Position numbers and translations under genes: made by a program. Of a DNA stretch of 64,000 nt, positions 18-41,001 are shown in pieces. Every line of letters starts with the position of its first letter. Position 1 is the stretch's first letter. The notes beneath the pieces are model-generated. The model ran no database searches, was not told the origin of the DNA, and was given only the letters and a program-made list of their open reading frames with translations. The stretch comes from Bacteroidota bacterium (lineage in GTDB: Bacteria > Bacteroidota > Bacteroidia > AKYH767-A > OLB10): contig JAFDWZ010000026.1 of NCBI GenBank assembly GCA_018268195.1, forward strand, positions 64,491 to 128,490, given 5' to 3'.

Positions 18-725
18 ATGGCTATTACACAACACGATTGTATTACCTGCAGTGTACGAGCATGTTCAATTCTTAATGAATGTGACAAGGAAACACTTAA
101 AGCAATCAGTAATTTTAAACTCACTAAATTTCTGGCAAAAGGCAAAAGGCTTTTCTCTGAAGGCGAACCCGTAGAAGGAGTATGTTTTATAAAGAAAGGC
201 TTTCTTAAAGTAGAGCTGAATGGAAAACAAGACAGACCTTTAATTCTTAAAATTGCCGGAAAGGGAACGGTCCTTGGTTATCGTATTAATGCCAAACATT
301 CTGTACATACATGCTCTGCAATTGCTGTTTCCGATGTGCAATATTGCTATGTGCCTTATGAGTTATTCGATAAAATTACTTCAAAAAGTTCTGAATTAAG
401 ACATCAGGTCATTAACCTTTTTATAGATGAACTTGAACTGGTAAAGAAAAAAGCACTGACTCTTGCACACAAAACTGTAAGAGAAAAAGTAGCCGAATCT
501 ATTTTATTGCTTGCCGAAACATTTAATTGTGAAAAAGAAGAAAATGAAATTTACATCAATTTCTGCAGACAGGATATAGCTGATTTAATTGGCACTACCA
601 AGGAGCAGGTTTCAAAAGTTATTAAAGATTTTGAAAAGGAAAAATTGATTAAATGCACTGCAAAAAAATTTAGTTATCTGGATATTTTCCGTCTTAACGA
701 AATTGCATTTCCCAACGTTCAGTGA
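18..725 (+). CDS. Crp/Fnr family transcriptional regulator with an FNR-like N-terminal cysteine cluster
   Basis: 235 aa. N-terminus reads DCITCSVRACSILNEC (C-x2-C-x4-C plus a fourth Cys). Central cNMP-binding-like beta-roll (GEPVEGVCFIKKGFLKV). C-terminal HTH (RQDIADLIGTTKEQVSKVIKDFEKEKLI). Lies directly upstream of the oxidase operon on the same strand. Confidence 0.85.
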   Translation: MAITQHDCITCSVRACSILNECDKETLKAISNFKLTKFLAKGKRLFSEGEPVEGVCFIKKGFLKVELNGKQDRPLILKIAGKGTVLGYRINAKHSVHTCSAIAVSDVQYCYVPYELFDKITSKSSELRHQVINLFIDELELVKKKALTLAHKTVREKVAESILLLAETFNCEKEENEIYINFCRQDIADLIGTTKEQVSKVIKDFEKEKLIKCTAKKFSYLDIFRLNEIAFPNVQ

Positions 726-803
726 CATTAAAAATGCCTGTGTAGTTTTTCTCATTCAAAAAAAATACGAAAACGTAATTATTGCCTGCTTTAAATAGCA
801 CTC

Positions 804-815
804 TGACATTTGTCA
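804..815. promoter_or_regulatory. Perfect palindrome TGACA-TT-TGTCA (contains TGAC-N4-GTCA); candidate Crp/Fnr-type operator upstream of the oxidase operon
   Basis: Read directly from the sequence (ctcTGACATTTGTCAtat), about 60 nt upstream of the first ORF of the operon (876). Resembles the core of FNR/Dnr-type boxes (TTGAT-N4-ATCAA). No binding data exist. Confidence 0.3.
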
Positions 816-875
816 TATCATTCAATATTCATTTTTGCTTTGAAAAAGTTGTAAAATGATTTTAAAACATTGAAT

Positions 876-1061
876 ATGGAAAATGATCAACAACAGGAAA
901 ACAAAAAAACTCCTTTCGGAAGAATGATTATGGACGACTTTATGTTGTTACTTTTTTTAGGAGTAACCATCTATGCCATTTTTTATCTGCTATGGGGTGT
1001 AATGGAACTTTCTAACCTGCCGGCAATTCCGGATGACGTCAAACAAAATTTAATCAATTAA
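876..1061 (+). CDS. Small single-TM membrane protein, possibly a ba3 subunit IIa (CbaD)-like peptide
   Basis: One hydrophobic helix (FMLLLFLGVTIYAIFYLLWGVM). Ends 24 nt before subunit II, the same position as cbaD in the Thermus cbaDBA operon. ATG at 876 is preferred over the TTG at 870. Confidence 0.5.
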   Translation: MENDQQQENKKTPFGRMIMDDFMLLLFLGVTIYAIFYLLWGVMELSNLPAIPDDVKQNLIN

Positions 1062-1085
1062 TTATTCACCTAAATATTAAGCATT

Positions 1086-2000
1086 ATGAGTTTACTCAGC
1101 CCGGTCGAAGGATGGTACTATAAAAAAGTCGCTAAAGATGAAAAGATGTGGATGATTATTGCACTTGTGCTATGTATCGTTCTTTTCATTTGGATGATTA
1201 TGTGGCACGTATATGGAAAACAAAATCCATCCAGCACAACTTACCGAACAAGTACAACAGAGTTTTCCAGGCTCACCGAAGCATACATCAAACAAAACAT
1301 GGTAGGAATGGACAATGGAATACCCATTGTAAAACCAGAGCCTAACACTGATATTTTTCTGATGGCAGAAATGTGGAGATGGAGCCCGGTACTTATTCTT
1401 CAAAAAGATCAGTCTTACAAATTTCATATTTCTTCAAAAGATCTCGTTCATGGTTTATCCATTCAACCGGTAAATATGAACTTTCAGGTCTATCCGGGTT
1501 ATGATTATCTGTTAGAATTTAAGCCAACCGAGTCCGGTGAGTATAAGGTCATCTGCAATGAGTTTTGCGGCATAGGTCATCATACCATGATTGGAAAAAT
1601 TGTGGTTATTGAAAAAGAAGAGGAATTAAAATCGTATGGCTTTGCAGATTTGAAAAAACCCGCAGGCCGCTCTGCAACTAAAAAGAATGAACCGCTTTCT
1701 GAAGCTGAGATGGCACTCATGGGTGAACAGGTATATACGCTCAAAGGTTGTGCTGCGTGTCATAAAACAGATGGCACTAGTATGATTGCTCCCGGTTGGA
1801 AAGGCTTGTATGGAAAAGAAGAGCATGTTATTGCCGATGGAAAAAAAATAACTGTAAGAGTTGATGATGACTATATAAGAGAGTCCATCAAGAATCCTTC
1901 TAATAAAATCACAGTAGGATACGAAAACACTCCTATGCCGGTAATGGGTTTAACCGATGAAGAAATTTCACAGGTTATTGCATATATAAAAACACTTTAA
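1086..2000 (+). CDS. Heme-copper oxidoreductase subunit II (CuA cupredoxin domain) fused to a C-terminal mono-heme cytochrome c domain
   Basis: N-terminal TM helix. CuA ligand set is intact: DLVHGLS and CNEFCGIGHHTM (H, C-x3-C-x3-H-x2-M). C-terminal CAACH heme c motif with a downstream MPVM. Confidence 0.9.
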   Translation: MSLLSPVEGWYYKKVAKDEKMWMIIALVLCIVLFIWMIMWHVYGKQNPSSTTYRTSTTEFSRLTEAYIKQNMVGMDNGIPIVKPEPNTDIFLMAEMWRWSPVLILQKDQSYKFHISSKDLVHGLSIQPVNMNFQVYPGYDYLLEFKPTESGEYKVICNEFCGIGHHTMIGKIVVIEKEEELKSYGFADLKKPAGRSATKKNEPLSEAEMALMGEQVYTLKGCAACHKTDGTSMIAPGWKGLYGKEEHVIADGKKITVRVDDDYIRESIKNPSNKITVGYENTPMPVMGLTDEEISQVIAYIKTL

Positions 2001-2033
2001 GACCAATACTTTCCAACTAAAATAAAAGACATT

Positions 2034-3701
2034 ATGTTTAGAACTTGCGACATCACAGGATTTAAAGTTGACCTTCAGTCAGAAAAACTTATAAGAGCTA
2101 ATGCAGTATTTGCAGTCATATCATTGCTTTTTGCTGTTGTAGCTGCCATACTGCTTGTTTTCACCCGATATCAGCCTGTGCATTTGCTCGGTGCTGAATG
2201 GTACTATCGTTTGGTAACCTTTCATGGATTGAATGCACTCATCTTCTGGATTATATTTTTTGAAATTGCCGGACTTTATTTCGGCTCTACGGTGATATTA
2301 AATACAAAGTTCTGTGCTCCTAAATGGGGATGGGTAGCTTTTGCGCTCATGGTAGCAGGATTAGTGATTTGTAATATCATAATTCTTATGGGTAAAGCAG
2401 ATGTTATGCTTACTTCCTACACTCCTCTCAAAGCACATCCGTTATATTACTTGGGTATTATTCTGTTTGCTGTGGGTGCATTGCTTGCTGTTATTTTATT
2501 TTTCGGTAATCTGATGATTGCAAGACGTGATAAAACTTATGGTGAAACAATGCCTCTGGTAACTTACGGGTTGATGACTGCTGCTATCATTGCAGTTATA
2601 ACACTTGCTTCAGGAGCGCTTATATATATTCCAACATTTCTTTGGTCGCTCGGTTTAGTAGAAAACATTGATCCTGCCATGTATAAACTTATCTGGTGGG
2701 GTCTGGGACATTCCTCTCAGCAGATAAATGTTGCTGCAATGGTTTCTATATGGTATATGGTATCATTCTTAACTGTAGGAGGTACTTCTATCAACGAAAG
2801 GGTATCACGTTCAGCATTTGTGTTGTATATTTTATTTATCTGTCTTGCATCAGCACACCACCTGCTTACCGACCCTGGAGTAAGCAGCGCATGGAAAGTA
2901 TGGAACACCAGTTATGCCATGTATCTTGCTGTTCTTGCATCAATGATTCATGCATTCGCAGTGCCGTCATCCTTCGAATCGGCACAACGCAGATGGGGTT
3001 TCAACAAAGGATTGTTTCAGTGGTTGTCAAAAGCGCCATGGAGTAATCCTGCATTTTCTTCCATCATTCTTGCTGTTATCGGTTTTGGTTTTATCGGTGG
3101 CACTACAGGGGTGATTTTCGGAATGGAACAAACCAATATCATTGTTCACAATACAATTGCTATTCCGGGACACTTCAAGGGTACCGTAGTTATCGGGACC
3201 ACTCTCACATTTATGGGTATCACCTACTATCTCATTCCACTCATATTTCGCAGAAAAATTGTGGGCTTCAAATGGGCACAATGGCAACCATGGTTATTTT
3301 TTATCGGTATAGCATTACTTTCAATTTCAATGATTGTTCTCGGACAACTTGGTGTTCCTCGCAGACATTGGGATTCTTCTTTCTCCGGTGGTCCATTTAC
3401 ATATAACTTTAACCCTGCTGTTGATTTCTTCTGGGCACTGATGATGCTGGGTGGAACCATTGCCTTCCTTGCTACTATCATCTGGATTTTAATCGTGGTA
3501 ATTTCCGTATTCTTTGGTCCCAAAGTTAACGGGCCACAGGATATGCAACTTAAAATTTCGCCACTGGCACCGGAAGCAAAAGAACATAAAGGGCTTGAAG
3601 CTCCCGGTACACTGGTGCTTACAATGATATTCCTACTGGTATTTATAGCGTTATTCTTCCTCAACTGGAAGTGGCTTGCTGCCACCTGGAACGTAAATTA
3701 A
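2034..3701 (+). CDS. Heme-copper oxidoreductase subunit I, B-family (ba3)-like but with non-canonical active-site positions
   Basis: 555 aa, polytopic. Blocks align with Thermus ba3 CbaA as I recall it: VTFHGLNALIF, TSYTPLKAHPLYYLG, MPLVTYG, WSLGLVENIDP, WWGLGHSSQQ (versus WWTGHPIVY), SAHHLLTDPG, LSKAPWSNPAF, VHNTIAIPGHFKG (versus VHNTAWVPGHFHL). Confidence 0.9.
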   Translation: MFRTCDITGFKVDLQSEKLIRANAVFAVISLLFAVVAAILLVFTRYQPVHLLGAEWYYRLVTFHGLNALIFWIIFFEIAGLYFGSTVILNTKFCAPKWGWVAFALMVAGLVICNIIILMGKADVMLTSYTPLKAHPLYYLGIILFAVGALLAVILFFGNLMIARRDKTYGETMPLVTYGLMTAAIIAVITLASGALIYIPTFLWSLGLVENIDPAMYKLIWWGLGHSSQQINVAAMVSIWYMVSFLTVGGTSINERVSRSAFVLYILFICLASAHHLLTDPGVSSAWKVWNTSYAMYLAVLASMIHAFAVPSSFESAQRRWGFNKGLFQWLSKAPWSNPAFSSIILAVIGFGFIGGTTGVIFGMEQTNIIVHNTIAIPGHFKGTVVIGTTLTFMGITYYLIPLIFRRKIVGFKWAQWQPWLFFIGIALLSISMIVLGQLGVPRRHWDSSFSGGPFTYNFNPAVDFFWALMMLGGTIAFLATIIWILIVVISVFFGPKVNGPQDMQLKISPLAPEAKEHKGLEAPGTLVLTMIFLLVFIALFFLNWKWLAATWNVN

Positions 3702-3781
3702 CCGGGCTAACCTTCATGTTGAATATGGTGCATGAATATTTTTTTCATGCATGCAGAAAAGTTTATTTAATAGGAGATAAT

Positions 3782-4528
3782 ATGCGATATGTAGTAATAT
3801 TGGTTTTGCCTCTATGGATTTTGTTATGCGGATTTAATTTCCCTGATGAAAAAAAACATCTCGCACAAAAAGTTGCCGATATTACGGTGACGGATGCAAA
3901 CGGAAATTCTTACAAACTTTACTCGTTGCTGCGCAACAAACCGCTTATCATCTCACCGGTTTATACCCGATGTTATTCAACATGTGCCATTGTAAGTAAT
4001 GGCGTTCAGGCAGTAGTTAATCAACTTGGCACTTTGGGAAAAGACTTTAACATGCTCAGCTTTTCCTTCGATACTGCCGACAAAGCTGAAGATCTTACCA
4101 TTTATGAACTGCGATGGAAGATGGATGGAAATAACTGGCGAACTGTAACTGCATCTGATGCTGAAATAAAAAAGTTATTGACATCCATCGGATACGAGTA
4201 CGACTACAATGCCTCCACCCAACAGTATAATCATCCTTCCATATTGGTGGTTCTAACACCCAGCGGTAAAATATCAAGATACATATATGGTATTAATCCT
4301 TCAAAGAAAGATGTAAACTTAGCAGTGATAGAAGCTGCTGCAGAACAGTCAAGGCCGGGATTAATTCAGGGGTTTTATCTCCGTTGTTTTGGTTACGACC
4401 CCATATTAAAAACCTACAAAATGGATTGGCGATTTATTATTTCCACTTCTGCAGGACTATTGATGATATCCTTGGTAAGTGGAATTTTTATACGATCTTT
4501 TATTATTTCAAAACACCATGACGGATAA
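3782..4528 (+). CDS. SCO1/SenC family copper chaperone (thioredoxin fold), membrane anchored
   Basis: CxxxC motif (RCYSTC, nt 3971-3985) and a downstream conserved His context (YNHPSILVVLTPSGKISRYIYG). N-terminal signal/anchor and a C-terminal TM. Start moved to ATG 3782 (MRYVVILVLPLW), which is preceded by aggag. Confidence 0.8.
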   Translation: MRYVVILVLPLWILLCGFNFPDEKKHLAQKVADITVTDANGNSYKLYSLLRNKPLIISPVYTRCYSTCAIVSNGVQAVVNQLGTLGKDFNMLSFSFDTADKAEDLTIYELRWKMDGNNWRTVTASDAEIKKLLTSIGYEYDYNASTQQYNHPSILVVLTPSGKISRYIYGINPSKKDVNLAVIEAAAEQSRPGLIQGFYLRCFGYDPILKTYKMDWRFIISTSAGLLMISLVSGIFIRSFIISKHHDG

Positions 4529-6467
4529 CATTAAAGAACAGCCGGCCCGCAAAGAACGAACGTATGGACATCAATTGTTTCAGAAATTTTCTTCCTTCTT
4601 CGGAAAAATATATTCTACCGATTTAAATCCTTTATACAACCTGGGCGGCATTGCCGTACTAATGTTTACCATTGCCTGTATTTCCGGCATATATATTTTT
4701 ATTTTTTACAATATCAATCCACGCGATGCCTGGGATTCAGTAGAGGCTATGTCAAACAACACTTTTAACGGATGGATGAGAACTATTCATCGTTACTCTT
4801 CTGATTTACTGGTGATTTTCATTTTGCTTCACTTGCTCCACACTTTGTTTACTTCAAAGTTTAAACGTCTTGTATCATGGATCAGTGGAATAATTTCCTT
4901 TTTAGTGGTAGTGATTATCGGTGTTACCGGCTTCATGCTTGTGTGGGATCAAAAAGCAAAACTTGCAGGATATCTTACTGCAAAACTTTTTTCCAGTCTT
5001 CCCATTTTCGACCCATCCATTGCGGGAGCATTTCTGCTCAACGACCTTAACACTGTTGGCGGATTTTTCAAAGTTGCATTATTTGGCCATATAGTTTTTT
5101 CGTTGGTAACAGTAATCATTATCTGGATTCATCTTCTTCGTATTTCCAAACCCAAATTATTTCCTCCTAAAAAACTGATCATTTACATCATCATCGCATT
5201 GGGAATTATTTCAATTGCAATACCGGTAAAAAGCGATCCACCGGCTCAGATGTCAAACCTGCCTATTCAAACTACATTCGACTGGTACTATTTTTTCGGA
5301 TACTATCTGATGAAATTGTTTACCGTTAATCAGAATTGGTTCATATTAACCGGTTCAGGAATCATACTGTGCATTATTCCTTATCTTATCAAAAGAAAAA
5401 ATAATCCACCCGTTTATATTGATCTCGACAAATGTGATGCTTGTAATCTCTGCTCCTATGACTGCCCCTATGAAGCCATTGATATGCTTCCACACAATGG
5501 CGCAAGAAAAGCCATTCTCTCACCTGACAAGTGTGTAGGTTGTGGTATCTGTATTGGCTCTTGTGCAGAGCATGCCATCAGTCACCCAATATACCCTGAG
5601 TTAATACTGCAGCAACGCAAGAAATCTGATTTGGCTGTATTCAGTTGCAGTTACTTTCCGGAGCCTGAATGGCCTTCAGGATTAGACATAGTACATTACA
5701 GAGTGCCTTGCACAGGGAGTGTTATGCCGAAGGATGTACAGCAAATGCTGGACAACAACTCCGAAAAAGTTGCTATTCTCGGTTGTGAAGATTGCTATTA
5801 TCGTCTGGGCAAAAACTGGACTATAAACCGTTTTCTGCGCAAAAGACCACCCACTTTTTCAAAGAAATTTGATGCTTCAAAAGTCAAAATGTTTACACTT
5901 ACTCAATACAATAAAGATAAACTTTTAGCATTTTCAAAGGAAGCTTCATCTGCCGATATAAGAACAGGAACATTAGGCGTTGATGACCACCAAAAAAGCA
6001 ATCCTATTCTTTCTACATTAATTCTTATAGTATTCTTTTCGCTGATGATTCCGTTCAGTAATACTACCGTTCATTTTTTCAACCCACAGGAAAAAACACT
6101 TATCGTAAACTTTAAATATATTTCTACTCCGCAAGAGTACGAACAAGTAAATACCGGAGCAGCACACATGAGGGCACTCAACCCTGTGGTTAAGAAAAGA
6201 AGTCCGGTGAAACTTACAATCTATTCAGCAAACAACAGCCGGTTGCTGTTTGAAAAAGAATTTTCTCCTCGTGGTCTTCGGCATGATATTGCAATGTTTA
6301 TTTATACACAGCTGAATATTGAAGCTGACAGTGTAAATGTGGATATAACAGAAACAGCCTTCCCCGACAAACATTACGAAATTAAAAATGTACATTTGAA
6401 AAAAGGCGATGGCACTTTTGTAATTTTTAAAGATGATAAACTGCAGGTCGCAGGAAAAAATGAATAG
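4518..6467 (+). CDS. Fusion protein: diheme cytochrome b (bc1/b6-type N-terminal domain), 2x[4Fe-4S] ferredoxin, MvhD/FlpD-like domain, TM helix and an uncharacterised C-terminal domain
   Basis: Two His pairs, each 14 residues apart on predicted helices: codons 4788/4830 (RTIHRY...LLH) and 5088/5130 (FGHIVF...WIH). CDACNLCSYDCP at 5433-5468 and CVGCGICIGSC at 5532-5564. MvhD-like Cys pattern (FSCSYF...VPCTGSV...ILGCEDCYY, about 5631-5830). Late TM helix (ILSTLILIVFFSLMIPF) followed by about 150 aa. Start at ATG 4518 overlaps the SCO gene end by 11 nt. Confidence 0.8.
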   Translation: MTDNIKEQPARKERTYGHQLFQKFSSFFGKIYSTDLNPLYNLGGIAVLMFTIACISGIYIFIFYNINPRDAWDSVEAMSNNTFNGWMRTIHRYSSDLLVIFILLHLLHTLFTSKFKRLVSWISGIISFLVVVIIGVTGFMLVWDQKAKLAGYLTAKLFSSLPIFDPSIAGAFLLNDLNTVGGFFKVALFGHIVFSLVTVIIIWIHLLRISKPKLFPPKKLIIYIIIALGIISIAIPVKSDPPAQMSNLPIQTTFDWYYFFGYYLMKLFTVNQNWFILTGSGIILCIIPYLIKRKNNPPVYIDLDKCDACNLCSYDCPYEAIDMLPHNGARKAILSPDKCVGCGICIGSCAEHAISHPIYPELILQQRKKSDLAVFSCSYFPEPEWPSGLDIVHYRVPCTGSVMPKDVQQMLDNNSEKVAILGCEDCYYRLGKNWTINRFLRKRPPTFSKKFDASKVKMFTLTQYNKDKLLAFSKEASSADIRTGTLGVDDHQKSNPILSTLILIVFFSLMIPFSNTTVHFFNPQEKTLIVNFKYISTPQEYEQVNTGAAHMRALNPVVKKRSPVKLTIYSANNSRLLFEKEFSPRGLRHDIAMFIYTQLNIEADSVNVDITETAFPDKHYEIKNVHLKKGDGTFVIFKDDKLQVAGKNE

Positions 6468-7424: not shown

Positions 7425-7793
7425 ATGAAATTACTTTTTCCTTCTCTTGTACTGATTTTACTCGCAACTGGCGGATATAGTCAGGTTGCTAAATCCCTCA
7501 GTAAAAAACCTGATCCTGCTAAAGAACTTATGTTAGTTGAAGCTTCCTGTGGTGAATGTAGTTATGGTATGCCCGGCAAAGATTGCGACCTTGCAGTAAA
7601 AATTAAAGACAGCACTTATTTTGTTGACGGTGTGAGCATTTATGAATTCGGTCATCCCCATGATGCTAATGGTTTTTGTATTGCAATTCGTCATGCCGAA
7701 GTACAAGGCGAAGTAGTAAACGGACGATTTAAGGCAAGTTACTTCAAATTACTGAAGGAGGACGAGCAAAATAATAAAGCTAAAGAAAACTGA
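7425..7793 (+). CDS. Hypothetical secreted protein, small and Cys-containing
   Basis: Signal peptide (MKLLFPSLVLILLATGGYSQ). CGEC plus two further Cys. Lys/Glu-rich tail. I cannot confidently assign a family. Confidence 0.55.
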   Translation: MKLLFPSLVLILLATGGYSQVAKSLSKKPDPAKELMLVEASCGECSYGMPGKDCDLAVKIKDSTYFVDGVSIYEFGHPHDANGFCIAIRHAEVQGEVVNGRFKASYFKLLKEDEQNNKAKEN

Positions 7794-12282: not shown

Positions 12283-14451
12283 TTATTTAGCTAACTGCTC
12301 TTTGTATTTCTTCAACTCATTATTATAGTTGGACTCTGACATACTTGTGGTGTTTTTGAAATAATATATACCCCCCCAATTATATACCACCTTAGAGAAT
12401 ACATCCGTTGAAGTTGATTTTTTAATAATCGTTCTGAAGATTTTCCTATTCGACTCATCAATGGTTTCTTCAGTAATACCTTCGGCATAGTTGGTGTCAA
12501 TAAAAACAGGTAGTGATGCTGTGGATTGTTTTTTCTCTGACTGCTCATTTGCTTTTGCCAATGCACGTTTTTGATCTTCAAGTTCGCGCAAACGTCTTGC
12601 TTCGGCTTCCTCTTGTTGGCGCTTTTTGGCAGCTGCAGCTTCAACTCTTGCTGTGCTGTCAGCTTCAAATTTAGCTCTTGCTTCAGCAGCAGCGCGCGCT
12701 TTGGCATCGGCTTCAGCTTTTGCTTTTGCTGCAGCTTCAGCTTTCACAGCACTATCCTGACGGCTTTTTTCCAATGCTGCCAAACGTGCCTTTTCAAGAG
12801 CTTCTTCTTTGGCTTTCTGCTCTGCCAGTGCTTTGGCATTTGCTATGGAATCTTGTCTTGCTTTTTCAAGTGCGAGCTGGCGCAAACGTTCTTGCTCTTT
12901 GGCTGCGGCTTCAGCTTTCAAAATACTATCCTGACGGGCTTTCTCCAAAGCTGCCAATCGTGCTTTTTCCAAAGCCTCTTCCTTGGCTTTCTGCTCAGCT
13001 AGCGTTTTGGCATTTGCAATAGAGTCTTGTCTTGCTTTTTCAAGTGCTACCTGGCGTAAACGTTCTTGTTCCTTAGCTTCTGCTTCAACTCGTGCAACAC
13101 TGTCTTTTCTGGCTTTTTCCAATGCTGCCAAACGCGCTGCTTCGGCAACTTTAGCGGCAGCTTCAGCTTTAGCTATACTATCTTGTCGGGCTTTCTCAAG
13201 GGCAGCTAATCTTAGTCGTTCATTCTCGCGGGCAACCGCTTCAGCCTTTTCCACACTGTCTTTTCTTGCCTTTTCCAATGCGGCCAAACGTGCCGCTTCT
13301 GCTGCCTTAGCAGCAGCTTCAGCCTGTGCAATACTATCCTGACGTGCCTTTTCAAGCGCTGCAAGTCTTCGCTGCTCTGCTGCATTGGCTTTGGCAATAC
13401 TGTCCTGTCTGACTTTTTCAAGTGCAGCTAATCGTGCTTGCTCCTTTGCGGCCTCTCTTGCTAATCTGTCTTCTTCGGCTTTTACTTTTGCTAAACTATC
13501 TTGCCGTGCTTTCTCCAACTCCGCAAGTCGTTTTTGTTCGGCATCTTTAGCCTGAGCTATGCTGTCTTGTCGGGCTTTTTCAAGTGCAGCAAGTCGTTTT
13601 TGTTCGGCAGCCTGCTCACGCGCCAGCTGCTCGGCAAGTGCCTTTGCTTTATCAATACTATCTTGTCGGGCTTTTTCTAAAGCAGCAAGACGTGCTCTTT
13701 CCAGAGCATCAGCTTTCAATTGCTCAGCTCTTAAACTATCATCTTCACGCTTTTTAGCCGCAGCAAAGGCAGCCTGACGCTCAGCTTCCAGTTTTTTCTG
13801 TTGTTCCTCTTCTTTCTTTTTCTGCGCAGCTTCAGCCAAACGAACCTGTTCATCAGCTTTCGCTTTGTTTATGGAATCCAGGCGTGCATGAGCAAGTGAG
13901 TCCTTCCTTTGTTTTTCCTGTGCGACAGCCTGTTCTTCCAAAGTCTTTTTAACTTGTTCGTTTTCCTGTTTACGTGCATTGGAGTACTCAATATCGTAAT
14001 CAAAATCATCATAGGAATCATTCCAACTCCATTTGGCTACCGGTTTTTCCAATGTTTTTGGCTGCTCAACTCCTTCGGGTACTTTAAACAGGTCAATACC
14101 AAACTTTCGGTTAGACAGTAATTGGTTTTTTATAGGTTCAGGTACACGAGTATCAAATATGATTGATTTGGTAACACATCCGCTTTTTGAAAACAACAAG
14201 GTGTAAACGGCATCCAGATCAAGATTGACTATAAATTTTCCATTGTTACCTGAAAGGATATTGTCCACTTGTTCATTACCTTTCATTACCTTGATTTCTG
14301 CACCTTCAAGACCTTTGCCGTTTTGCTTAACATTACCAAGCAATTCCAAGCTACCCTTTTGAGCGAAAATTGCAGGTGAAAGACAAAGCACCAGTAACGT
14401 AGTCAGTATTAAACGACCGGTGTATTTTTTTAAAGTATTAATCTTTGACAT
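12283..14451 (-). CDS. Membrane-anchored or secreted coiled-coil repeat protein with a CarboxypepD_reg-like N-terminal beta domain
   Basis: Start moved to the internal Met (MSKINTLKKYTGRLILTTLLVLCLSPAIFAQ, a signal/anchor). Beta-sandwich-like segment GNVKQNGKGLEGAEIKVMKGNEQV...YTLLFSKSGCVTKSIIFDT. Roughly 400 aa of Ala/Glu/Lys/Arg-rich heptad-like sequence. Globular C-terminus. Confidence 0.85.
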   Translation of the reverse strand: MSKINTLKKYTGRLILTTLLVLCLSPAIFAQKGSLELLGNVKQNGKGLEGAEIKVMKGNEQVDNILSGNNGKFIVNLDLDAVYTLLFSKSGCVTKSIIFDTRVPEPIKNQLLSNRKFGIDLFKVPEGVEQPKTLEKPVAKWSWNDSYDDFDYDIEYSNARKQENEQVKKTLEEQAVAQEKQRKDSLAHARLDSINKAKADEQVRLAEAAQKKKEEEQQKKLEAERQAAFAAAKKREDDSLRAEQLKADALERARLAALEKARQDSIDKAKALAEQLAREQAAEQKRLAALEKARQDSIAQAKDAEQKRLAELEKARQDSLAKVKAEEDRLAREAAKEQARLAALEKVRQDSIAKANAAEQRRLAALEKARQDSIAQAEAAAKAAEAARLAALEKARKDSVEKAEAVARENERLRLAALEKARQDSIAKAEAAAKVAEAARLAALEKARKDSVARVEAEAKEQERLRQVALEKARQDSIANAKTLAEQKAKEEALEKARLAALEKARQDSILKAEAAAKEQERLRQLALEKARQDSIANAKALAEQKAKEEALEKARLAALEKSRQDSAVKAEAAAKAKAEADAKARAAAEARAKFEADSTARVEAAAAKKRQQEEAEARRLRELEDQKRALAKANEQSEKKQSTASLPVFIDTNYAEGITEETIDESNRKIFRTIIKKSTSTDVFSKVVYNWGGIYYFKNTTSMSESNYNNELKKYKEQLAK
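12715..13701 (-). repeat. In-frame tandem repeat array: 12 copies of LEK[A/V/S]R[Q/K]DS spaced 22-32 aa apart, including a 58-aa higher-order duplication
   Basis: Counted in the translation at residues 269, 301, 324, 355, 377, 404, 429, 455, 481, 513, 539 and 571 of the tracked ORF. Residues 471-528 and 529-586 differ at only about 5 of 58 positions (nt 12727-13074). Confidence 0.85.
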
Positions 14452-15313
14452 TAAAAATACGGTTTGAGAATAATATACATTCATTCAGTTTATCTCTATC
14501 TATAGTTAAATGGTAATTATTTTTTAAAAAGTATTGTACTGCATTTTCAGTTGCAAGGTTTCCTGTCAGGTGATCTTCTGCCATTGGGCAGCCGCCAAAT
14601 CCTCTTATTGCCATGTCAAACCGGGTACATCCATGCTGAGCTGCAGCATTCAGTTTTTCTTCCCATGCTGTGGGAGTAACATGCAGGTGGGCTCCGAATT
14701 CCACATCAGGATAGGATGGTATAAGCTCTGAAAACAAGTAAGAAATATCTTCCTTGCGTGCCATTCCTACCGTATCGGCAAGTGAAATTACAGATATTCC
14801 CTCATTAATCATCTTTTCTACCCATTGTCCCACAATTTCAGTATTCCAAGTATCGCCATAAGGGTTGCCAAAACCCATTGATATGTATATCACCAGATTT
14901 TTGTTGTTTTTCACACATAATTCCTGCATCCGCTTCACGGTTTCAAAGGATTCTGCAATGGTGCTGTTGGTATTGCGTAATTGAAATGTTTCGGATATTG
15001 AAAACGGAAAACCCAGAAAAGTTATTGCGGCATGTTTAATTGCATCTTCAGCTCCTCGCTGATTGGCAACAATTGCCAAAAGTTTGGTCTGTGAGGAAGA
15101 TACATCCAACCCTGCAAGTACTTCTGTTGTGTCTTTCAACTGTGGGATAGCTTTAGGGGAAACAAAACTTCCAAAATCAAGCGTATCAAACCCAACTTTC
15201 AAAAGCATATTCAGGTATTCGGTTTTCAAGCTTGTGGGAATAAACTCATGCATTCCCTGCATGGCATCTCGCGGACATTCAATAAGTTTGACTTCTTGTT
15301 TCAATGAATTCAA
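14438..15313 (-). CDS. Hydroxymethylglutaryl-CoA lyase
   Basis: HMGL-like TIM barrel. N-terminal ECPRDAMQG motif and a conserved His-containing C-terminal half (GAHLHVT). Confidence 0.85.
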   Translation of the reverse strand: MNSLKQEVKLIECPRDAMQGMHEFIPTSLKTEYLNMLLKVGFDTLDFGSFVSPKAIPQLKDTTEVLAGLDVSSSQTKLLAIVANQRGAEDAIKHAAITFLGFPFSISETFQLRNTNSTIAESFETVKRMQELCVKNNKNLVIYISMGFGNPYGDTWNTEIVGQWVEKMINEGISVISLADTVGMARKEDISYLFSELIPSYPDVEFGAHLHVTPTAWEEKLNAAAQHGCTRFDMAIRGFGGCPMAEDHLTGNLATENAVQYFLKNNYHLTIDRDKLNECILFSNRIFNVKD

Positions 15314-38640: not shown

Positions 38641-41001
38641 TTATTCGTCATCCTCCTCATTGCCCAATTCAATGAGTGATTCGCCAATAATTTCTTTACG
38701 GCTTACCCATTTATCAATTGACAACAATAACGAAGGCAGCAATACAAGATTGGTAATCATGGCAACCAAAAGAGTAATGGAAATTAATACTCCCAATGCT
38801 ACGGTACCACCAAAGTCAGAGGCGGCAAATATGCTGAAACCGAAAAATAAAATAATTGCTGTATAGATCATTGAAAAGCCGGTATCCATAATCGTAGCAG
38901 AAATAGCTTCGCTAATAGTTCGCTTTGAATACTTCAGTTCCCGCTTGTATTTGGCCAAAAAATACACCGTGCCGTCACTGGAAATCCCAAATGCTATACT
39001 GAAAATTAATATGGTAGAAGGCTTGAATCGAATATCCAGAAATCCCATGATGCCTGCGGTAATAATCAAAGGAATAAGGCATGGTAATTTGCTTAATAAA
39101 ATAATACGCACCTCCCTGAACAGCGCCATTCCAACAAGTGCAATCAACACAATTTCTATAATTAAACTCTCATAAAGATTATACAGCAGGTAATCATTGC
39201 CTTTTAAAAACATCAGGCTGTGGCCTGTAAGTTTAACATTGTATTCGTCCTTATTAAAAATGGAATCAACTCTCGGTTGAATTTCTTCAAGTAACTTTTT
39301 AATCTTCTTTGAGCCTACATCGGCCATTTGCATACTTATGCGTGTGTATTGCCGTGTGGAGTCTATGAACGACTTTAGTCTGTTTTCATTTCCTTTTACT
39401 GTTGAGGTATATTCATTCAGGCTTTTAAGCTCACTGATTCCGGGCAAGACATAATATTTAGGATCCCCTCCTCGATAAGCCTGATATGAAAATTTCAATG
39501 CGTCTACTATAGAAATACCTCTTGATAATTCCGGATATTGTTCGAGAATTTTCTCAAGACTTTTCATCTTATATAACACACGGGCATTATCAGCCAACAC
39601 ACCATCAGGCTTTTTACTGTCAATGAATACTTCAAATGGCAACACCCCTTTGAAATTTTTCTCAAAAAAGTGCATGTCGGTATAAACAGGATTATTCTTT
39701 GGTAAGTCATCAACCACATAACCTGTAACATCAATCTTTGACATACCATAAAAACACAGCAATGTAACAATGGTGATTACCGCATATATTTTATTACGCT
39801 TGTGATGAACGATAAAATCAACCCATTCCAAAATTCTGCGAATACGTTTTCCTTCCAGATGCTGCATGTGTTTATCAGAAGGTGGCGGCATATAGCTTAA
39901 GATAATTGGAATTAAAATGAGTGTAATGAAATAAGTTGCCATCACATTAATGGCAGCTATAACACCAAACTGGGCGAGAAAAGAACTTTTGGTAAATAAC
40001 AACACTCCAAATCCTATGGCTGTAGTAATATTTGCAAGGAATAACGATACCCCAATAGTGGTAATCATTCTGGCCAAAGCCTTTACTTTATTGCCATGGT
40101 TCGCAAATTCCGAATGATATTTATTGATAAGGAAAATACAATTAGGCACACCAATGACCATAATCAGCGGAGGAATAAGTGCAGTAAGTATGGTTATTTT
40201 ATAGTTAAGCAATTCAATGCTGCCTACACTCCAAAGTACGCCAATGGCTACAACAATTACCGATATGATTACCGAAGAAAGTGATCTGAAAAATGCTCCC
40301 AAAATGATGGTAGTCATGATTACAGCGAGAATGAGAAACAGTTTCAGCTCATGCGAAACTTTTTCCATCACAGCCGTGCGTATGTAAGGCATTCCTGAAA
40401 AATGCAATTCGATATTATGCAACCTGCTGAAAGCGTCCGCTTCCTTTTTTATTTCGTTGACAATGTCAATTCTGTGCTTTGAATCAAGATCCTTTTTACG
40501 GAACGTGATTGCCATCAGAGTAGCATTGGTTTCTTTATTCAGAACCAATCCGTCATAAAATGGCAATTCGTTAATACGTTTTCGTATGCTGTCAATTTCT
40601 GATTGCTGCTGTGGCAACGATTTCACAAGTGGTACAAAATCAAATTTCCTCAGACTGTCGTTTCGTACCAGGTCATACACATCTCCCAATGACAACACAT
40701 TCTGTATTCCGTCAATTTTCTTGATTTTTTTGGAAAGAAGATACCAGTCGTTAAACTTTTCAATTCTGAAAATGGAGCTATCTGCAAGACCAATCACCAT
40801 CACGCTGCCATCTTCCCCAAATAATTGTTTAAATCGTTCGTACTGTACAAATGATGAATCAGTGGCGGGCAACAAGCTGGCAAAGTTATAACTCAGCTTA
40901 ATGTTGGCTGCCTTATAGCCCATGAACAAGGTGAGTATCACCAAGGCAATAAAAAAAGCCGGCCTGTTACGTAAAATTTTATTTGCTAAAAACTTCCACA
41001 T
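38641..41001 (-). CDS. MMPL/RND-superfamily exporter (sterol-sensing-domain type)
   Basis: 786 aa with a 2 x (1 TM + periplasmic loop + 5 TM) arrangement and an acidic C-terminus. Resembles HpnN/MMPL-type lipid exporters. Confidence 0.8.
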   Translation of the reverse strand: MWKFLANKILRNRPAFFIALVILTLFMGYKAANIKLSYNFASLLPATDSSFVQYERFKQLFGEDGSVMVIGLADSSIFRIEKFNDWYLLSKKIKKIDGIQNVLSLGDVYDLVRNDSLRKFDFVPLVKSLPQQQSEIDSIRKRINELPFYDGLVLNKETNATLMAITFRKKDLDSKHRIDIVNEIKKEADAFSRLHNIELHFSGMPYIRTAVMEKVSHELKLFLILAVIMTTIILGAFFRSLSSVIISVIVVAIGVLWSVGSIELLNYKITILTALIPPLIMVIGVPNCIFLINKYHSEFANHGNKVKALARMITTIGVSLFLANITTAIGFGVLLFTKSSFLAQFGVIAAINVMATYFITLILIPIILSYMPPPSDKHMQHLEGKRIRRILEWVDFIVHHKRNKIYAVITIVTLLCFYGMSKIDVTGYVVDDLPKNNPVYTDMHFFEKNFKGVLPFEVFIDSKKPDGVLADNARVLYKMKSLEKILEQYPELSRGISIVDALKFSYQAYRGGDPKYYVLPGISELKSLNEYTSTVKGNENRLKSFIDSTRQYTRISMQMADVGSKKIKKLLEEIQPRVDSIFNKDEYNVKLTGHSLMFLKGNDYLLYNLYESLIIEIVLIALVGMALFREVRIILLSKLPCLIPLIITAGIMGFLDIRFKPSTILIFSIAFGISSDGTVYFLAKYKRELKYSKRTISEAISATIMDTGFSMIYTAIILFFGFSIFAASDFGGTVALGVLISITLLVAMITNLVLLPSLLLSIDKWVSRKEIIGESLIELGNEEDDE

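Follow-up and report, generated by a model that had tools for sequence, protein, structure and literature searches.

The window analysed here, a 64-kb stretch (64,000 nucleotides) of contig JAFDWZ010000026.1 from a Bacteroidota bacterium, opens with the gene of a Crp/Fnr-family regulator, which is followed on the same strand by an operon of five genes. These code for a 61-aa peptide, a CuA-containing subunit II, a heme-copper subunit I, an SCO copper chaperone and a protein in which a cytochrome b, an Fe-S region and a periplasmic domain are joined in one chain (hereafter the fusion protein). Taken together, our data indicate that the window quite probably encodes an eNOR-type nitric oxide reductase (NOR) with its assembly and accessory genes, under the control of a local FNR-like regulator. 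The eNOR family was reportedly named in 2008 (Hemp and Gennis) and was validated biochemically in 2024 (Murali et al.).

The six open reading frames (ORFs; 235, 61, 304, 555, 248 and 649 aa) that the original prediction had placed here were re-derived from the sequence (Table 1), and independent gene calling on public contigs with an identical subunit I, of which GCA_029781995.1 is one source, gave the same starts and lengths. The spacing it had listed (gaps of 24, 33 and 80 nt, then an 11-nt overlap) is consistent with these coordinates, and its domain calls were backed gene by gene by Pfam and NCBIfam, with the 61-aa peptide having no match to a Pfam family. The operon ends at 6467, and the stop codon of a convergent MarC gene lies 3 nt further on. 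By its subunit I, 'Bacteroidetes bacterium OLB10' (98% identity) comes nearest among the species-level genomes of GTDB.

The catalytic core and its probable assignment to eNOR

The closest solved structures to subunit I are Thermus ba3 oxidases (E 3e-46, ~30% identity). In the alignment with these enzymes, GHSSQQ of the window protein stands against GHPIVY, which places Gln230 at the position of the cross-link Tyr (Y237 in ba3). The CuB/FeB ligands are retained (H226, H275 and H276 for ba3 H233, H282 and H283), as is the high-spin heme ligand (H380 for H384, the heme a3 ligand). H64 and K382 ligate the low-spin heme, Lys taking the place of ba3 H386 (GHFK vs. GHFH). The alignment thus bears out the earlier claim that subunit I lacks the catalytic Tyr, and the exchange of His for Lys at the low-spin heme is a second substitution that had been overlooked. 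Loss of the His-Tyr cofactor needed for O2 reduction from the predicted active site is strongly supported by this comparison.

The motif H-x-x-Q-Q (Q-Q motif) was present in 77/77 aligned relatives of the first genome scan, and the two other locus scans showed it in each subunit I match of readable length. Each of the three scans comprised 80 loci (240 in total): the first covered eNOR loci, one used the fusion protein as query and one was seeded with Thermomicrobium and Thermus. The sixth heme-ligand position is Lys in 46 of the 77 relatives (Bacteroidota, Aquificota and HR21) and His in 31; the Thermus thermophilus NAR1 homolog likewise has GHFK. The K-channel residues Y248, S309 and T312 of ba3 correspond to Y241, S303 and H306, each 100% conserved in the 77 sequences, and when N254 is included the set is conserved at 97–100%.

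When the neighbours of subunit I were ranked in a search of 1.84 billion cluster representatives, Q-Q sequences, including one from a haloarchaeon, were followed by an archaeal HxxQY group (35–43% identity) and by the canonical HPxVY B family (~30% identity). In neighbour-joining trees, the window protein fell into a single Q-Q clade together with sequences from a haloarchaeon, Thermus thermophilus NAR1, Thermomicrobium roseum and, among Proteobacteria, a Defluviimonas plasmid. This clade is sister to the Tyr-retaining HxxQY group and far from the canonical B family, and subunit I does not nest within the Tyr-bearing ba3 oxidases. The original prediction had suggested a NOR-like, B-family-derived clade rather than an ordinary aerobic oxidase; this view held, and among the candidates it listed, eNOR fits by the Gln and by the Q-Q clade. 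Homologs of subunit I from Rhodothermales metagenome-assembled genomes (MAGs) also carry the Q-Q motif.

Previous studies showed that Gln at the cross-link Tyr position is the defining mark of eNOR (PMC8756737) and that eNORs are B-family-derived enzymes with a CuA subunit, a K-channel-like path and, in 'some eNORs', a His/Lys low-spin heme (PMC11214002). The purified Rhodothermus marinus eNOR reduced NO and not O2, O2 reduction by heme-copper oxidoreductases (HCOs) depends on the cross-link Tyr, and no Tyr that migrated from another helix has been reported for these families (PMC11214002). By its sequence, subunit I is most probably an eNOR of the His/Lys subtype, and its predicted NO reductase activity (2 NO -> N2O) is assigned by homology with the R. 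marinus enzyme.

With described eNORs (R. marinus Rmar_0161 and the Magnetospirillum 'cytochrome a1-like' protein; PMC11214002), the window enzyme shares the Gln, the three His ligands, the CuA subunit II, the S309 equivalent, the His/Lys ligation of 'some eNORs', an SCO gene in the operon and orthologs located in denitrification clusters. It differs from them in the cytochrome c fused to subunit II, in an operon containing neither ctaA nor ctaB, and in a context of NO stress rather than nir/nos genes; heme A(s) cofactors would be expected of an eNOR. The Thermus thermophilus ba3 operon cbaDBA (PDB 1EHK, 1XME) has the same order of small peptide, II and I, a CuA subunit II with a single transmembrane (TM) helix and a K channel in the same location. 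However, Y237 is replaced by Gln, H386 by Lys and T312 by His, the two enzymes belong to different clades, and NO rather than O2 is the expected substrate of the window enzyme.

We also considered, and rejected, an sNOR identity, which the adjacent SenC gene had suggested. The norSY-senC-orf1 cluster of ammonia-oxidising bacteria likewise encodes a putative NOR that is of CuA type and derives from the B family, and it also contains a neighbouring SenC/SCO gene and another ORF that is unexplained. However, the S309-equivalent Ser is reportedly missing from sNOR, whose active site is reported to be that of bNOR (PMC11214002), and the invariant Ser303 therefore argues against an sNOR; this Ser and the Gln hallmark both match eNOR, in a comparison that takes sNOR from its published description only.

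It had been claimed that the five-gene arrangement is not recognisable as a characterised system. This part of the original prediction has to be given up, as the core enzyme was already purified from R. marinus and its NO reduction demonstrated (PMC11214002), and the order II-I-heme o synthase-sco1-scaffold has been described as the common eNOR operon in a preprint that also mentions adjacent cytochrome b/[Fe-S] genes (10.64898/2026.01.22.701106). A small peptide gene, II, I, in some cases heme o synthase, then SCO and accessory genes make up this common layout. With a named, biochemically validated family and a usual operon layout, the window holds a further member of a known family. What sets its lineage apart is a subunit II fused to cytochrome c, the triple fusion, a His/Lys heme and an FNR-like regulator that has an operator of its own.

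Two motifs were read from the translation of subunit II, CNEFCGIGHHTM for CuA and CAACH for the heme. A CuA motif was found in 142/160 relatives; fusion to a cytochrome c was confined to 36 Chitinophagales/Saprospirales-type loci. In tblastn searches, the 61-aa peptide was located just before the subunit II gene in most loci of Bacteroidota and Aquificota, and in some other loci; it is 60% identical to a Hydrogenobacter ORF, and similar ORFs of Thermus, Thermomicrobium and Defluviimonas have the common motif DDF(M/L)LLLFLG..YL.WG. The SCO gene was adjacent in 41/41 Bacteroidota and 7/7 Aquificota/HR21 loci and in 65/80 diverse eNOR loci, and sco1 is known as a common eNOR operon gene (10.64898/2026.01.22.701106). 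The SCO protein probably serves in CuA assembly. That this 'private' chaperone marks an unusual module, as had been argued, does not follow, since SCO is routine in eNOR operons.

Table 1. Positions of the regulator, promoter elements and operon genes in the window
Feature	Position	Strand	Basis
Crp/Fnr-family regulator, N-terminal Cys cluster	18..725	+	Pfam cNMP_binding + HTH_Crp_2
Palindrome TACGAAAACGTA, candidate operator	766..777	.	kept in orthologous promoters
CATTTTTG, probable Bacteroidota-type -7 element	830..837	+	promoter alignment
61-aa single-TM peptide, IIa-like third eNOR subunit	876..1061	+	conservation upstream of subunit II
eNOR subunit II: one TM helix, CuA cupredoxin, C-terminal mono-heme cytochrome c	1086..2000	+	Pfam COX2 + Cytochrom_C
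eNOR subunit I (catalytic)	2034..3701	+	Pfam COX1, E 1e-64
Membrane-anchored SCO1/SenC copper chaperone, CYSTC motif	3782..4528	+	Pfam SCO1-SenC
Fusion protein, part 1: di-heme cytochrome b of bc1/b6 type, six TM helices	4518..5402	+	Pfam Cytochrome_B
Fusion protein, part 2: two [4Fe-4S] ferredoxin motifs + MvhD/FlpD-like module	5403..5987	+	Pfam Fer4 families + FlpD
Fusion protein, part 3: seventh TM helix + Cys-free periplasmic beta-sandwich domain	5988..6467	+	AF2 model

Several observations on relatives of subunit I were made in passing. The nearest Tyr-retaining relatives of eNOR, with HxxQY, are P0244, P0247, P0248 and P0260, the named ones coming from Archaea (Candidatus Hodarchaeales and Thermoproteota); they may be the 'K family' O2 reductases, which are said to cluster with eNOR (bioRxiv 10.1101/592808). 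A separate HCO-like group from the search of cluster representatives (P0304, P0306, P0321, P0335 and P0385, one of them from a Dehalococcoidia MAG) has an odd ligand set, with YH in place of the HH of CuB and YFH or YLH in place of the high-spin HFH, and with the cross-link Tyr present. A truncated second COX1-like ORF (422–443 aa) adjoins the eNOR genes in Hydrogenobacter thermophilus, in a betaproteobacterium and in some others (L084, 11668-12936; L206, 15772-17103; L036, ~4660-5904). In Hydrogenobacter, the motifs of this ORF read GHLQQ and HYH; the window does not contain such an ORF.

The cytochrome b/Fe-S fusion protein

The fusion protein has seven TM helices in total. Its cytochrome b part matched the cytochromes b of b6f and bc1 complexes over ~300 columns (Foldseek, probability 1.0), and its heme ligands H91/H105 and H191/H205 (H-x13-H twice) are, together with Asp255, invariant in 23 sequences from several phyla. 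On the p side, the motifs LVWDQ and FDWYYFFGY resemble WGQ and PEWY of the Qo pocket; FDWY is confined to the His/Lys subclade, and across the phyla represented by these 23 sequences Asp alone is invariant. The cytochrome b is followed by two [4Fe-4S] motifs (CxxCxxCxxxC twice; C306/309/312/316 and C339/342/345/349) and by an MvhD/FlpD-like module, in which C377, C398, C423 and C426 are the four Cys, and all 12 Cys are invariant in the same alignment. The FlpD Pfam match scored 27 bits (cut-off 22.3), and weak Foldseek matches (E ~0.01–0.04) linked the Fe-S module to MvhD (5odc_D, 8rvu_F) and to the HdrA ferredoxin domain. According to the positive-inside rule, this module would be cytoplasmic. 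In the AF2 model, residues 527–644 fold into an all-beta domain (pLDDT ~85–90); this periplasmic domain is free of Cys, contains a conserved H550-M551 motif and belongs to no Pfam family. We detected no Rieske or cytochrome c1/f domain in any operon gene or in the annotated neighbourhoods.

Among the first 80 eNOR loci, 70 contained the fusion protein, and five of the ten exceptions were contigs too short to judge. It was also present in 61/80 loci of the scan seeded with Thermomicrobium and Thermus, where it spanned Alpha-, Beta- and Gammaproteobacteria, Leptospiraceae, Nitrospirota and Rhodothermales. Conversely, with the fusion protein as query, a Q-Q subunit I was adjacent in 73/80 loci, the other seven contigs stopping short of that position. 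The fusion gene is thus co-conserved with the oxidase-like genes, as expected from the original prediction, with linkage in both directions across the 240 loci. Relatives of the protein occur in at least 523 species-level genomes.

Shorter fusion proteins (~525 aa) were directly followed by a stand-alone gene homologous to the C-terminal domain of the window protein in 91/94 loci, and the latter is therefore a three-part Rosetta-stone fusion. A direct BLASTP comparison of this domain with the 172-aa protein of Defluviimonas gave an E value of 0.06 only, and the homology was traced through intermediate sequences. The stand-alone beta-sandwich gene is probably the 'eNOR scaffold protein' of a 2026 preprint on Ferrigenium straubiae (10.64898/2026.01.22.701106).

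Homologs of the fusion protein are annotated with generic names only, and our literature search on cytochrome b and MvhD fusions found nothing relevant. The sole mention found of cytochrome b/[Fe-S] genes beside eNOR is in the Ferrigenium preprint, which calls them unusual. In that organism, all four proteins of the region, the paralogous cytochrome b proteins included, were detected in the proteome under denitrifying conditions, and a supercomplex with eNOR was proposed (10.64898/2026.01.22.701106). The window operon resembles the Ferrigenium one in having eNOR II, eNOR I, sco1, a probable 'scaffold' and nearby cytochrome b and [Fe-S] proteins. Whereas the preprint considered the cytochrome b/[Fe-S] genes as possibly specific to Ferrigenium, we found them in most of the bacterial eNOR operons sampled. 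In contrast to Ferrigenium, the cytochrome b/Fe-S part and the probable 'scaffold' form a single 649-aa protein in the window, and neither a FAD/NADH-extended paralog nor a heme o synthase is present. Such a paralog was observed in a betaproteobacterial eNOR locus (L206, 11583-14019), in which a cytochrome b with a plant-type [2Fe-2S] ferredoxin domain is followed by FAD_binding_6 and NAD_binding_1 in an overlapping frame; this architecture matches the 'quinol:NAD+ oxidoreductase' candidate of the preprint.

With the cytochrome b of bc1 and b6f complexes, the fusion protein has in common the four-His di-heme bundle and the fold of helices A–F, and its cd-helix and ef-loop motifs resemble WGQ and PEWY. 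It differs from them in lacking helices G and H, in an operon that supplies neither a Rieske nor a cytochrome c1/f partner, and in a C-terminus that runs into Fe-S and beta-sandwich domains. Like MvhD/HdrA modules and QmoC-type fusions, it combines a membrane b-type cytochrome with predicted cytoplasmic Fe-S clusters and a four-Cys, MvhD-like putative adaptor module. However, QmoC and HdrE contain a NarI-type cytochrome b, whereas that of the fusion protein is bc-type, its partner is a heme-copper NO reductase, and no Hdr, Qmo or hydrogenase genes are nearby. Three features of this protein can be regarded as established, namely a di-heme wire across the membrane, an Fe-S chain predicted to be cytoplasmic and a tight genetic coupling to eNOR, and it is probably a genuine conserved redox partner in most of the bacterial eNOR operons sampled.

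Regulator, promoter and genomic neighbourhood

The regulator contains a Cys cluster, C8-x2-C11-x4-C16-x5-C22, that is largely kept in those orthologs that adjoin the operon, an arrangement found only in Chitinophagales-like relatives. Its best NCBIfam matches were Fnr and FnrL, both under the cut-off (Fnr score 75.7 vs. 228). It is similar to FNR and FnrL in its Crp/Fnr fold, its N-terminal Cys cluster and a likely 5-N4-5 palindrome located before a respiratory operon. However, the spacing of the Cys residues is unlike that of E. coli FNR, the Fnr score is far below the cut-off, and the half-sites are TACG/CGTA rather than TTGAT/ATCAA.

An alignment of 24 orthologous promoter regions revealed a near-invariant block, AAAAA(A/G)TACGAAAaCGTA, ~100 nt upstream of the first gene. 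The palindrome TACGAAAACGTA sits in the conserved AAAAA(A/G)TACGAAAACGTA block, and a TAGnTTTG-like element comes after it. It has the form TACG-N4-CGTA, with a 5-N4-5 Crp/Fnr-like architecture, and is likely, from its conservation, to be the operator of the adjacent FNR-like regulator. Two exact copies occur in the window versus 0.23 expected, more than in any of 100 shuffles. The second copy, TACGTTTTCGTA (40575-40586), lies ~425 nt within a gene for an MMPL-family transporter (38641-41001, minus strand) and, being intragenic, is probably not regulatory. Another palindrome, TGAC-N4-GTCA at ~803-816, was rejected as an operator because it is not conserved in orthologs.

The octamer CATTTTTG aligns with a conserved tTAg.TTT block of the orthologous promoters and has one mismatch to TAnnTTTG, the -7 promoter consensus of Bacteroidota; we regard it as a probable -7 element of this type. 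Scans for sigma-70 promoters and intrinsic terminators returned sites no more frequently than in shuffled sequence, and no FNR box (TTGAT-N4-ATCAA) was found in 726-875 with one mismatch allowed. The proposal of an oxygen/NO-type regulator therefore stands as far as an FNR-like protein, its conserved Cys cluster and a conserved candidate operator are concerned, whereas canonical FNR boxes are missing from the promoter region. From these features, the protein is a probable O2/NO-sensing activator of the operon. FNR control of a 'ba3' (eNOR) operon has also been predicted in Accumulibacter (PMC6446978).

The genomic context of the operon differs between organisms. The Hydrogenobacter thermophilus ortholog (68% identity) is located between cyt c-nosZ-nosLDFY and two nirS genes accompanied by heme d1 biosynthesis genes, which is the site expected for the NO reductase of a denitrifier. 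The Thermus NAR1 homolog, already suspected to be the missing NOR (PMC7694296), lies beside nirS, nirJ and a nirK-like gene, with nsrR directly downstream. We could not detect nirS, nosZ, nirK, ctaA or ctaB in the 64-kb window or in the 8 kb upstream of it; neighbouring nir and nos genes, for which the original prediction had suggested a search, were seen beside the Hydrogenobacter and Thermus homologs and not here. On its own contig just 5' of the window (L082, 1-7900) is a cluster encoding a ScdA_N/hemerythrin (RIC-like) protein, two more hemerythrin-like proteins, a cupin, a DUF1858/DUF2249 protein, a 431-aa protein without a Pfam match, FeS_assembly_P, an Rrf2 (NsrR-like) regulator, OsmC and CMD. 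Rrf2/DUF542/cupin genes similar to those of this cluster are found downstream of the Thermus eNOR homolog (L167). Given this nitrosative/oxidative-stress neighbourhood, the likeliest role of the enzyme in this organism would be NO detoxification or partial denitrification.

Possible electron routes and alternative explanations

There is strong support for the IIa-like peptide, subunit II and subunit I constituting a CuA-containing, B-family-derived heme-copper enzyme, in which the three His ligands of the metal site and a polar path similar to a K channel are retained. In the mechanism we propose, electrons most likely pass in this lineage from the cytochrome c domain of subunit II to CuA, which SCO probably loads, and then via the His/Lys low-spin heme to the binuclear site. 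The FNR-like regulator would bind the TACG-N4-CGTA palindrome and turn the operon on at low O2 and/or in the presence of NO. For the fusion protein, we tentatively suggest that quinol is oxidised at a Rieske-less Qo-like site and that the electrons are split between eNOR and the Fe-S chain. Menaquinol would be oxidised at the periplasmic side, one electron would be delivered to eNOR, which the periplasmic beta-sandwich would dock to the fusion protein, and the other would cross the membrane via hemes bL and bH to the cytoplasmic Fe-S chain. A further-reaching version, which we consider unlikely, is that eNOR and the cytochrome b/[4Fe-4S]/MvhD-like and beta-sandwich proteins form one membrane supercomplex, an autonomous quinol:NO oxidoreductase that has a Qo-type site but no Rieske protein, bifurcates the electrons of quinol and yields reduced ferredoxin or NAD(P)H. 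Here, NO reduction, with its very high potential, would draw off the first electron, and the second would be driven over the membrane into the low-potential Fe-S chain of the cytoplasm.

It should be noted that several points weigh against this interpretation. The eNOR assignment in this organism is a prediction from sequence; the subunit I trees are neighbour-joining trees without support values that do not include the characterised R. marinus Rmar_0161, whose nearest proxies are the Rhodothermales MAG homologs with the Q-Q motif. The putative link between palindrome and regulator comes from conservation and adjacency, and a respiratory role is not supported locally, as nirK, nirS and nosZ are absent from the window and the 8 kb upstream. 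The fusion protein is missing from Thermus, Thermomicrobium and Chloroflexota-type eNOR loci, and R. marinus eNOR was active as a two-subunit enzyme with artificial donors (PMC11214002); thus, the fusion protein is not needed for catalysis and stands outside the catalytic core. With regard to the Qo-like site, the DWY motif keeps its Trp and Tyr only within the His/Lys subclade, and the operon offers no Rieske protein or obvious high-potential acceptor.

It is possible, although somewhat unlikely, that electrons run the other way, with the fusion protein acting as an outward transmembrane wire comparable to NOX and ferric reductases. Ferredoxin, or NAD(P)H through an unlinked partner, would then feed the MvhD-like/[4Fe-4S] module from the cytoplasm, and the b hemes would pass electrons on, at the periplasmic side, to the cytochrome c/CuA of eNOR or to quinone. 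Such a supply of eNOR would be independent of the main respiratory chain and useful in NO detoxification, and the surroundings here indeed point to NO stress, not respiration. MvhD is an electron-transfer adaptor in Mvh-Hdr complexes, although the Foldseek match to it is weak, and the Fe-S module is predicted to be cytoplasmic, near the n-side heme. The betaproteobacterial and Ferrigenium paralogs (cytochrome b with [2Fe-2S], then FAD_binding_6 and NAD_binding_1) also fit, as such modules are normally fed by NAD(P)H; however, the Ferrigenium authors favour the reverse direction, from quinol to NAD+ (10.64898/2026.01.22.701106). Moreover, the Qo-pocket-like motifs (VWD and the invariant Asp255) would be superfluous for a simple wire, and no gene for a cytoplasmic donor is conserved in the operon. 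Less probable still, the fusion and beta-sandwich proteins might be biogenesis factors that provide redox equivalents for the conversion of heme O to heme A(s), replacing a CtaA-type synthase, or that handle copper together with SCO. Their genes are placed among assembly genes (I, heme o synthase, SCO, fusion protein, beta-sandwich protein), and the periplasmic domain has a conserved His-Met pair. Eukaryotic heme A synthase requires a ferredoxin partner. CtaA was encoded in only 2 of ~160 and 3 of 80 fusion-bearing loci, in which ctaB is common, the Thermomicrobium locus without the fusion gene has a fused CtaA-CtaB, and heme A synthesis without O2 has been raised as a puzzle (10.64898/2026.01.22.701106). 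However, the cytochrome b folds like those of quinol-oxidising bc complexes and bears no relation to CtaA, which is probably encoded elsewhere in these genomes and which, if divergent, may be overlooked by tblastn with a single CtaA query. The complementarity of CtaA and the fusion protein is suggestive, but very few fusion-less eNOR loci were sampled, too few to claim it as a finding, and we did not retain it as such.

We consider it highly improbable that the enzyme is instead an atypical ba3-like oxidase, specialised for terminal O2 reduction at low O2. Its nearest solved structures are ba3 oxidases, its CuA subunit has a fused cytochrome c like that of caa3 oxidases, an FNR-type regulator is also found with high-affinity oxidases, and public annotations call it a cytochrome c oxidase. 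However, every readable family member sampled has Gln at the position of the cross-link Tyr, which HCOs require for O2 reduction, a reaction of which R. marinus eNOR showed none (PMC11214002), and orthologs are embedded in nir/nos clusters.

Public annotations describe eNOR genes as 'cbb3-type' or plain cytochrome c oxidase, and because of these oxidase labels organisms like this wastewater-type Bacteroidota are scored as lacking an NO reductase. Recognising eNOR shifts the predicted N2O production and NO detoxification of common reactor and soil bacteria. The broader point beyond this window is that a di-heme cytochrome b wired to cytoplasmic Fe-S clusters, barely noticed in the literature, is present in most of the bacterial eNOR operons sampled. 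Should electrons physiologically enter or leave eNOR through the fusion protein, this bears on the energy conserved by eNOR-based (often aerobic) denitrification and on how a heme-copper enzyme can be linked to the quinone pool with neither a bc1 complex nor ACIII. If the bifurcating supercomplex exists, the energetics of eNOR denitrification would be quite unlike those of cNOR and qNOR pathways in hundreds of species.

Two further ORFs outside the operon were observed in the window. A 733-aa ORF at 12283-14484 (minus strand) had no Pfam match at E <= 1e-4 and was gene-called on the public contigs too. Beyond the operon, past the convergent MarC gene, 7425-7793 encodes a small DUF6370 protein that is rich in Cys and His and whose N-terminus resembles a signal peptide.

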